Counted from the stretch's first letter, positions 1 through 566 are shown. The stretch: 566 nt of DNA from Escherichia coli (GCF_003334405.1 NZ_QOWM01000063.1), one strand, 5' to 3'. Notes: generated from the letters alone by a model not told the origin. Made by a program: numbers and translations.

Positions 1-57
1 GTCCTTCATCGCCTCTGACTGCCAGGGCATCCACCGTGTACGCTTAGTCGCTTAACC
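1..57 (-). rRNA. rrl: 23S ribosomal RNA, 5' end (partial; gene continues beyond the left edge of the window)
   Basis: Reverse complement of 1..57 reads GGTTAAGCGACTAAGCGTACACGGTGGATGCCCTGGCAGTCAGAGGCGATGAAGGAC, which matches the canonical mature 5' end of enterobacterial 23S rRNA as I recall it. Position 57 is the inferred mature 5' nucleotide; the exact end depends on processing. Confidence 0.93.
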
Positions 58-164
58 TCACAACCCGAAGATGTTTCTTACGATTCATCATCGTGTTGCG
101 AAAATTTGAGAGACTCACGAACAACTTTCATTGTTCAGTGTTTCAATTTTCAGCTTGATCCAGA

Positions 165-177
165 TTTTTAAAGAGCA
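165..177 (-). promoter_or_regulatory. boxA-like antitermination element in the spacer (minus-strand TGCTCTTTAAAAA)
   Basis: Reverse complement of 165..177 is TGCTCTTTAAAAA, one mismatch from the rrn boxA consensus TGCTCTTTAACAA. It sits between tRNA-Ala and 23S, where the spacer boxA lies in E. coli rrn operons. Function inferred from established knowledge of the rrn Nus-factor antitermination system, not from sequence alone. Confidence 0.55.
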
Positions 178-240
178 AAACTTCGCAGTGAACCTTTGCA
201 GGTACACTCTGAAGTATTTTTTATTTAATCACTACAGAGA

Positions 241-316
241 TGGTGGAGCTATGCGGGATCGAACCGCAGACCTCCTGCGTGCAAAGCAGGCGCTCTCCCA
301 GCTGAGCTATAGCCCC
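241..316 (-). tRNA. tRNA-Ala (anticodon UGC), 76 nt including encoded 3' CCA
   Basis: Reverse complement of 241..316 reads GGGGCTATAGCTCAGCTGGGAGAGCGCCTGCTTTGCACGCAGGAGGTCTGCGGTTCGATCCCGCATAGCTCCACCA. It has a 7-bp acceptor stem, a D-loop motif AGCTCAGCTGGGAGAGC, anticodon stem CCTGC/GCAGG with loop TTTGCAC (anticodon UGC; plus-strand gca at 281..283), a T-arm GGTTCGATCC and an encoded CCA end. It matches the E. coli spacer tRNA-Ala(UGC) as recalled. Which paralog (alaT/alaU/alaV) cannot be told from this window. Confidence 0.95.
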
Positions 317-358: not shown

Positions 359-435
<77 letters not shown>

Positions 436-503: not shown

Positions 504-566
504 TAAGGAGGTGATCCAACCGCAGGTTCCCCTACGGTTACCTTGTTACGACTTCACCCCAGTCAT
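504..566 (-). rRNA. rrs: 16S ribosomal RNA, 3' end (partial; gene continues beyond the right edge of the window)
   Basis: Reverse complement of 504..566 reads ATGACTGGGGTGAAGTCGTAACAAGGTAACCGTAGGGGAACCTGCGGTTGGATCACCTCCTTA, the conserved 16S 3' terminal domain (helices 44-45) ending in the anti-Shine-Dalgarno sequence CACCTCCTTA (plus-strand taaggaggtg at 504..513). Position 504 is the inferred mature 3' nucleotide. Confidence 0.95.

Follow-up and report, generated by a model that had tools for sequence, protein, structure and literature searches.

An inverted repeat upstream of Escherichia coli 23S rRNA lies in the conserved central stem-loop of StyR-44

The rrnD spacer and its inverted repeat

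The window analyzed here, a 566-nt stretch of an Escherichia coli genome (GCF_003334405.1, NZ_QOWM01000063.1), carries two tRNA genes detected by ARAGORN and two pieces of rRNA detected by Rfam (Table 1). All of these genes lie on its minus strand, and the window therefore is the reverse complement of a 16S - tRNA-Ile - tRNA-Ala - 23S spacer. Many E. coli genomes carry an rrn operon that is 100% identical to the window, and the best-matching operon can be assigned to rrnD because it is neighbored by aroE and yrdA and has a distal end composed of 5S - tRNA-Thr - 5S. We used this operon in transcript orientation as a reference locus (L001), for which the window position equals 5067 minus the L001 position. 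Negative positions below refer to the mature 23S 5' end, which is window position 57, and positive positions refer to the 23S trailer unless stated otherwise. The region upstream of 23S is known as the location of the second boxB-boxA-boxC set of rrn operons (PMC10250234), and its boxA and boxB-like hairpin are included in Table 1.

Table 1. Features of the 566-nt window, in window coordinates
Feature	Position	Strand	Basis
23S rRNA 5' end	1-57	-	Rfam LSU, model positions 1-57; RefSeq annotation of the identical operon
Leader strand of the classical RNase III helix: -1 to -20 (58-77) plus 23S nucleotides 1-8 (50-57)	50-77	-	Joint fold
StyR-44 element (Rfam RF01830)	65-173	-	cmscan, full-length match
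Second small local leader hairpin ACGAU-GAUGA-AUCGU	80-94 (-37 to -23)	-	MFE/centroid and joint folds
Leader UUCGC	98-102	-	Joint fold: pairs with trailer GCGGA (+21 to +25)
Leader segment E2 (AGUCUCUCA), 3' side of the hairpin	107-115	-	Joint fold
Full hairpin CAC-U-GAACAAU [GAAA] GUUGUUC-GUG	116-140	-	MFE and centroid folds, covariation
Invariant junction GAAA, 5' side of the hairpin	141-144	-	Kept in nearly all loci with the element
Leader segment E1 (AAUCUGGAUCAAGCUGAAAAUU), between boxA and the hairpin, ca. 23 nt	145-166	-	Joint fold
Spacer boxA (UGCUCUUUAAAAA)	165-177	-	Read from sequence
boxB-like hairpin upstream of boxA	187-208	-	MFE, centroid and joint folds
tRNA-Ala (UGC)	241-316	-	ARAGORN, Rfam
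tRNA-Ile	359-435	-	ARAGORN
16S rRNA 3' end	504-566	-	Rfam

The original prediction for this DNA had pointed to a short inverted repeat of gaacaa (119-124) and ttgttc (131-136) around a 6-nt gap (ctttca) and had suggested that it might form a small hairpin in the transcript, around 60 to 80 nt upstream of mature 23S in the spacer behind tRNA-Ala. All of this is borne out by our analysis: the two arms are perfect reverse complements at -62 to -79, the gene calls of ARAGORN and Rfam place them in the tRNA-Ala to 23S spacer, and the minus-strand RNA folds into a stem of 10 bp at this site. The repeat is not significant by itself, given that a perfect 6-bp repeat with a loop of 3-10 nt is present in 62% of dinucleotide-shuffled windows (with a mean of 1.17 per window) and in 36% of shuffled 183-nt spacers.

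Because the operon is transcribed from the minus strand, the RNA of relevance is GAACAAUGAAAGUUGUUC. Here, the repeat forms the core of the full hairpin found 59-83 nt upstream of 23S (-59 to -83), in which a seventh pair (U.G) closes a GAAA tetraloop (window 126-129) and three basal CAC/GUG pairs follow beyond a single bulged U (window 137). This hairpin has a predicted free energy of -9.2 kcal/mol (z = -2.97), and folding the entire 183-nt spacer recovers its 10-bp stem in the MFE and centroid structures alike. The plus-strand fold of the 18-nt repeat is weaker, with -3.2 kcal/mol and 20 of 200 shuffles scoring as well. The sequences directly bordering the hairpin are UUGAAA on its 5' side and AGUCUCUC on its 3' side, with the C of UUGAAAC being the first base of the hairpin itself. 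We found no terminator- or promoter-like signal on either strand, and an intrinsic terminator was rejected as a candidate: the stem is rich in A/U and followed by GAGUCUCUC, which does not constitute a terminator-like site.

A full-length match to StyR-44 covers the hairpin, with model positions 1-107 of 107 aligned by cmscan at 123.3 bits (E = 3.7e-21; gathering score 54), and runs from inside the spacer boxA to -8, adjoining the RNase III cut reported at -7. It is found directly upstream of 23S with tRNA-Ala and the 16S 3' end located upstream, and window 116-140 is aligned by cmscan with the model's central hairpin of 10 pairs, in a register with which independent folds and covariation agree. 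The hairpin is the already catalogued central stem-loop of StyR-44 and, as such, an ordinary part of the rRNA precursor, an identity that the original prediction had overlooked. The cloning of a 109-nt RNA from Salmonella Typhi led to the description of StyR-44, which is "part of ribosomal operon", has seven copies in both S. Typhi and E. coli, and gives a growth phase-regulated Northern blot signal in both organisms; its discoverers described it as processed from longer precursors and possibly a metastable intermediate of rRNA maturation (Chinni et al. 2010, PMC2943607). The element is present in Rfam and was reported in E. coli in 2010, and the hairpin is already known. Later papers class StyR-44 as an sRNA of unknown function. 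The listed E. coli RefSeq genomes carry no annotation over this region despite the existence of the Rfam family.

Self-complementarity and variation at the hairpin site

A scan of one genome per species with the conserved sequence just after boxA as a query returned 120 Enterobacterales loci, including those of Escherichia, Enterobacter, Citrobacter, Kluyvera, Serratia, Yersinia, Rahnella, Rouxiella, Brenneria, and Lonsdalea as well as Photorhabdus, Xenorhabdus, Proteus, Providencia, and several insect symbionts. The Rfam threshold for StyR-44 is reached in Escherichia, Enterobacter, Citrobacter, Superficieibacter, Serratia, Shimwellia, Rahnella, and Providencia. Photorhabdus, Xenorhabdus, and Proteus remain below it, yet they share the same anchors and a hairpin at the same site. 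These two nearly invariant anchors are ..CAAGCUGAAAAUUGAAA on the 5' side and AGUCUCUCAA.. on the 3' side, and the leader segments around the hairpin (..AAGCUGAAAAUUGAAA and AGUCUCUCAA..) hardly vary, its position between them being fixed. We note that UUGAAAC (141-147) and GAGUCUCUCAA (107-117) are almost invariant across Enterobacteriaceae, Yersiniaceae, Pectobacteriaceae, and Morganellaceae. In the loci of Steffania, Arsenophonus, Sodalis, and Fukatsuia (L021, L028, L116, and L117), boxA and the start of E1 are kept and the hairpin anchors are lost or diverged.

Between the anchors, the sequence is unrelated from genus to genus while its self-complementarity is kept. All 51 distinct segments from ca. 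20 genera fold as one hairpin, with a median z of -4.6 relative to shuffles and 98% of segments below -2, and their lengths (21-61 nt) ignore any reading frame, the site being inside an rRNA transcript. When the alignable subsets were aligned with plain MAFFT, the stem was found again by RNAalifold, with double substitutions at most pairs. For 13 short forms of Enterobacteriaceae, 92.3% of alignment cells are paired compared to 72.4 +/- 3.3% in shuffles (a value that none of 500 shuffles reaches), and sliding the partner by one to three columns lowers this share to 13-58%; both sides have changed at five of seven pairs, though this count of pairs is matched by 155 of the 500 shuffles. The 16 forms of Morganellaceae show 89.5% of paired cells compared to 71.2% in shuffles, and here the changes on both sides, seen at eight of nine pairs, are matched by none of 500 shuffles. 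Among the seven operons of K-12, we found three variants that differ only by a U.G or C-G closing pair and a GAAA or GAGA loop. At the base of the hairpin, RNAalifold additionally pairs GA with UC across an AA/AG internal loop.

It is this covariation together with the universal hairpin folding across lineages, rather than the repeat itself, which argues that the hairpin is real, and the comparative data point to an evolutionarily maintained RNA structure. Given that sequence and length vary freely while self-complementarity is kept, selection seems to act on the presence of a closed hairpin at this site and not on the hairpin's sequence.

The hairpins fall into length classes of ca. 21-27 nt (Escherichia, most Enterobacter, Pseudenterobacter, and Superficieibacter), 31-42 nt (Morganellaceae), and 51-61 nt (Citrobacter, Kluyvera, Shimwellia, Silvania, Serratia, Yersinia, Rahnella, Rouxiella, and Lonsdalea). 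Two classes can meet in one genome, as in Citrobacter amalonaticus S646, whose rrn operons include one with a hairpin of 51 nt and one with a hairpin of 24 nt (L114 and L115). No long form was found among 5,426 complete E. coli genomes. The long forms of Citrobacter, Kluyvera, Shimwellia, Serratia, Yersinia, Rahnella, Rouxiella, and Lonsdalea share an apical CUCCGUA (UCCGUA in two of them), which is also seen in a long form of Escherichia sp. ESNIH1 (loci L015, L017-L020, L026, L037, L038, L040, L046, L049, L056, L063, L079, and L102). This shared apex suggests an ancestral long form that would have been cut down in E. coli, and the long version at least may carry sequence-specific information, which would be left out of account by the notion that any hairpin will do.

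Pairing of the hairpin flanks with the 23S trailer

The classical pre-23S leader-trailer helix is described as comprising 27 bp or about 30 bp (PMC10250234, PMC8782170), and the RNase III cleavage sites are placed at -7 or -3 on the 5' side of 23S and at 7 nt beyond its 3' end (PMC8708148). We folded the leader (from the 3' end of tRNA-Ala to 23S position +12) jointly with the trailer (from 12 nt before the 23S 3' end to the start of 5S) and recovered this helix as near-continuous pairing of window 50-77 with the 23S 3' end and trailer positions +1 to +19, with one trailer base unpaired. The original prediction had assigned the repeat to the region that pairs with 23S 3'-flanking sequence as the RNase III processing stem. 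This is right for the sequences on either side of the hairpin, which do pair with the 3' flank, and wrong for the hairpin, given that the stem is made of leader positions -1 to -20 and 23S nucleotides 1-8. In the joint folds, the bases of the hairpin pair only with each other, and their location at -59 to -83 is distant from the cleavage sites at -7/-3 and +7. The precursor and leader strand are those of the known leader-trailer structure (Gemler et al. 2024, PMC11404451) and the hairpin is flanked by segments that pair with the trailer, but it differs from the established helix in having no trailer pairing of its own and in lying 52-76 nt upstream of the -7 cut, outside the 27-30 bp.

The hairpin is one of two leader hairpins that appear as side arms in the joint fold. 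Its pairs have probabilities of 0.69-1.0 when the leader is folded alone and of 0.90-1.0 when the trailer is present, and the same architecture is predicted in all seven operons of K-12 and in 25 further operons retaining the anchors (from Enterobacter, Citrobacter, Pseudenterobacter, Photorhabdus, Yersinia, and Lonsdalea). Because the local hairpin persists with the trailer in all of these operons, the scenario considered by the original prediction in which this segment pairs with the 3' flank in another register, leaving the hairpin unformed, does not occur.

It is the flanks of the hairpin, not the hairpin, that are complementary to the 23S trailer, with E1 upstream and E2 downstream, and the hairpin between these two trailer-pairing segments is a leader-leader helix. 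On the 3' side, UCUCUCA of E2 (107-113, -50 to -56) pairs with trailer UGAGAGA (+26 to +32) with probabilities of 0.86-1.0. This helix is colinear with that of E1 in 94% of 32 operons, though it is a weak element by itself and too short for significance relative to shuffles. On the 5' side, E1 pairs with trailer positions +35 to +56 (L001 7948-7969) with probabilities of 0.82-1.0, and its paired pieces in the window are 161-166, 156-158, and 145-154: GCUGAAAAUU (-97 to -88) pairs with trailer GAUUUUCAGC (+35 to +44), followed outward by UCA with UGA and AAUCUG with CAGAUU, which takes the pairing to -109/+56.

Since trailers carry lineage-specific insertions, we tested E1 and E2 by an anchor-based duplex search against shuffled trailers. 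E1 has a partner in the cognate trailer of all 32 operons, with free energies of -18 to -27 kcal/mol compared to about -11 kcal/mol in shuffles, and none of 200 shuffles is as good in any of these operons. The position of the partner drifts between +30 and +75 owing to the insertions. The variable base of E1 (GGA[U/A]CAAG) forms a U-A pair in 13 operons and an A-U pair in 19 and is never unpaired, which is a true compensatory switch but possibly reflects a single evolutionary event. As predicted from folds and complementarity, the leader-trailer pairing of 23S seems to extend far beyond the usual 27-30 bp and to reach the spacer boxA. The literature that we searched gave only the helix of 27-30 bp, and older primary papers or supplementary models may show the extended pairing. 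The older primary papers cited in this literature are those of Bram, Young and Steitz (1980), Berg (1989), and Liiv and Remme (1998).

In Rfam, StyR-44 is modelled as an RNA in its own right whose outer stem is formed locally, GC-GAAAAUU : AAUUUUCGC (window 97-105 / 145-154), whereas the same bases are engaged by the stronger and more widely conserved trailer helix in our joint folds; leader UUCGC (98-102), which pairs with the trailer, is the 3' strand of the outer stem. The local partner is weaker than the trailer in all 32 operons (with means of -6.1 and -10.2 kcal/mol, respectively), the probability of the outer stem is near 0 in the full-length leader, and its 3' strand AAUUUUCGC is absent outside Enterobacteriaceae. 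For these reasons, we rejected the local outer stem as the conserved partner of GCUGAAAAUU. It can form in the isolated fragment and may still do so once the fragment has been excised.

The leaders of Photorhabdus (L022-L025, L092-L100, and L109) carry CAAGCUG twice, once on each side of the hairpin, the motif being longer in L099 and L109 (CAAGCUGAA). Trailer UUCAGCUUG could pair with either of the two copies.

Possible roles of the hairpin in the rRNA precursor

On the basis of thermodynamic folds and comparative data, we think that the repeat is probably the core of a 10-bp, GNRA-capped StyR-44 stem-loop that serves as a leader-leader helix and aligns its flanks for pairing with the trailer. 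Helices of this kind are well accepted in the leader-trailer structures of rRNA precursors (Gemler et al. 2024, PMC11404451). The hairpin would fold co-transcriptionally, ca. 2.9 kb before the trailer partner of its neighbors is made, and would thereby tuck away leader sequence that lacks a trailer counterpart, amounting to about 25 nt here and up to 61 nt in other genera. This would place the two flanking leader segments side by side, and the nearly contiguous trailer UGAGAGA-AA-GAUUUUCAGC could then zip onto both of them. The result would be a three-way junction, predicted from thermodynamics and conserved complementarity, within a leader-trailer structure spanning the whole distance between the 23S termini and the spacer boxA. 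Cleavage by RNase III at -7 would free the leader piece as the StyR-44 fragment of ca. 109 nt, and the end of the StyR-44 match at -8, which abuts the published cut, counts in favor of such a release; the stable hairpin probably aids the persistence of the excised fragment.

The main rival to a positive role of the hairpin in assembly is that the site is an inert hot spot of insertions and deletions where inserts are tolerated as long as they pair with themselves and do not interfere with 23S folding or the pairing of leader and trailer, selection being purely negative, a reading that we regard as possible but unlikely. It would readily accommodate the extreme variation in sequence and length, the co-occurrence of 24-nt and 51-nt forms in a single genome of C. 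amalonaticus, loops that are not conserved across genera, and the several insect endosymbionts that keep boxA and the start of E1 with lost or diverged anchors. Variable stem-loops of rRNA, such as length variants of internal transcribed spacers or the intervening sequences in helices 25 and 45 of 23S, similarly occupy fixed positions, are self-complementary, and differ in sequence and length between lineages and even between operons of one genome. In contrast to these, the hairpin is much smaller and is removed with the leader instead of being excised alone, and we saw no sign that RNase III cuts it. Against the inert reading, all lineages that keep the anchors retain a hairpin, which is never deleted to zero, and the shortest stem still has 7 bp. 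Its position is also fixed relative to boxA, its immediate flanks are invariant in four families, and all 5,426 complete E. coli genomes have the short form without exception.

The conservation of UUGAAAC and GAGUCUCUCAA exceeds what pairing with a variable trailer would need, which hints at an additional constraint on the flanks of the junction. A bolder version of the leader-leader helix would have a conserved three-way junction reaching boxA in which E1 is the 23S counterpart of boxC, the invariant flanks are a specific recognition platform for an assembly factor or nuclease, and hairpin length (short, or long with the apical CUCCGUA) tunes 50S assembly or the decay of the leader differently from operon to operon; we put this forward as speculation and would not expect it to hold in full. 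The 16S leader has its nearly invariant boxC 18-19 nt downstream of boxA, and this sequence serves as the leader strand in the 16S leader-trailer helix (Warner et al. 2023, PMC10250234). E1 likewise is a near-invariant leader sequence soon after boxA that appears to form a long-range helix with the trailer in which covariation is detectable. It differs in belonging to another rRNA and having another sequence, the 23S version is known from sequence and folds, and the likeness is one to the neighbor of the hairpin.

We consider it improbable that the stem-loop is a stabilizer or a protein- or target-binding element of a trans-acting sRNA, i.e., that StyR-44 is a regulator released from the precursor. 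Such a role is favored by the growth phase-regulated, discrete 109-nt RNA on Northern blots of S. Typhi and E. coli (PMC2943607), by the induction of all seven copies (log2 FC >= 6.5) within 5 min of carolacton treatment in an E. coli TolC strain, and by the listing of StyR-44 among the sRNAs of Pectobacterium, and a stable stem with a GNRA cap would suit it. The discoverers themselves, however, allow for a mere metastable intermediate of maturation (PMC2943607), and the carolacton paper describes the function of StyR-44 as unknown. The abundance of such an RNA would track rRNA synthesis and processing anyway. Its hairpin lacks any conserved stretch that might serve as a seed, the parts of StyR-44 that are conserved are those complementary to the 23S trailer, and we see no support for a trans-acting role in the sequence. 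The best explanation for the conserved sequences of StyR-44 is one in cis, in which they provide the leader strand for an extended leader-trailer structure of 23S and do not act as a regulatory sRNA, and this calls for caution in treating StyR-44 as an sRNA in transcriptome studies. What our analysis may add, and what is possibly already present in the literature, is the evidence that these conserved parts are a leader strand that reaches the spacer boxA; for the hairpin, it clarifies that comparative data support a real structure under structural selection that is located outside the RNase III stem.

A nut-like boxB, in which the GNRA-type loop near boxA would be bound by a factor of the rrn antitermination complex, has very little in its favor. 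The hairpin is located 24 nt downstream of the spacer boxA, and its GAAA or GAGA loops in E. coli recall the boxA-boxB order of phage lambda, but the loop varies in other genera (GCUCA, UUUAAU, ACCGA, CCGUAAUA, and others), and this lack of conservation makes a boxB-like protein site unlikely. In addition, rrn operons already have a boxB-like hairpin, which lies upstream of boxA, and the role of rrn boxB is itself puzzling in the absence of a host N protein (PMC10250234). Finally, the notion that the repeat is due to chance, as its frequency in shuffled spacers might suggest, or that pairing with the 23S 3' flank in another register prevents the local hairpin is hardly credible and already contradicted by comparative data, given the covariation and universal hairpin potential at this site, the high pair probabilities of the hairpin with its cognate trailer, and the lack of alternative trailer pairing in any operon with the element.

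Elsewhere in the window, the strongest local hairpin is formed by a perfect 9-bp inverted repeat (CAAATTTGC acg GCAAATTTG; 340-360) in the 42-nt spacer between tRNA-Ile and tRNA-Ala. Two 13-nt arms (329-341 and 435-447; 92% complementary) bracket tRNA-Ile and could enclose it by a helix in the precursor. Another two arms of 23 nt (168-190 and 479-501; 74% complementary) bracket both tRNAs and join the first nucleotides after the 16S 3' end to the spacer boxA and the 3' half of boxB, which may be due to chance or a by-product of the similarity between leader boxA and spacer boxA. Plus-strand Rfam matches to OxyS (172-268), Plastid-ycf2 (243-316), and HPnc0260 (361-392) were taken as chance, because their scores are far below gathering, they lie on the non-transcribed strand, and two of them overlap a tRNA in antisense. 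At the second small leader hairpin (80-94), K-12 rrnG and rrnD (L124 and L125) have the window's ACGAUGAUGAAUCGU swapped for a shorter CUCUGAAGUG, while the window, being rrnD of another strain, carries the long version and is nearly identical to K-12 rrnH, a pattern that looks like mosaic exchange between operons.
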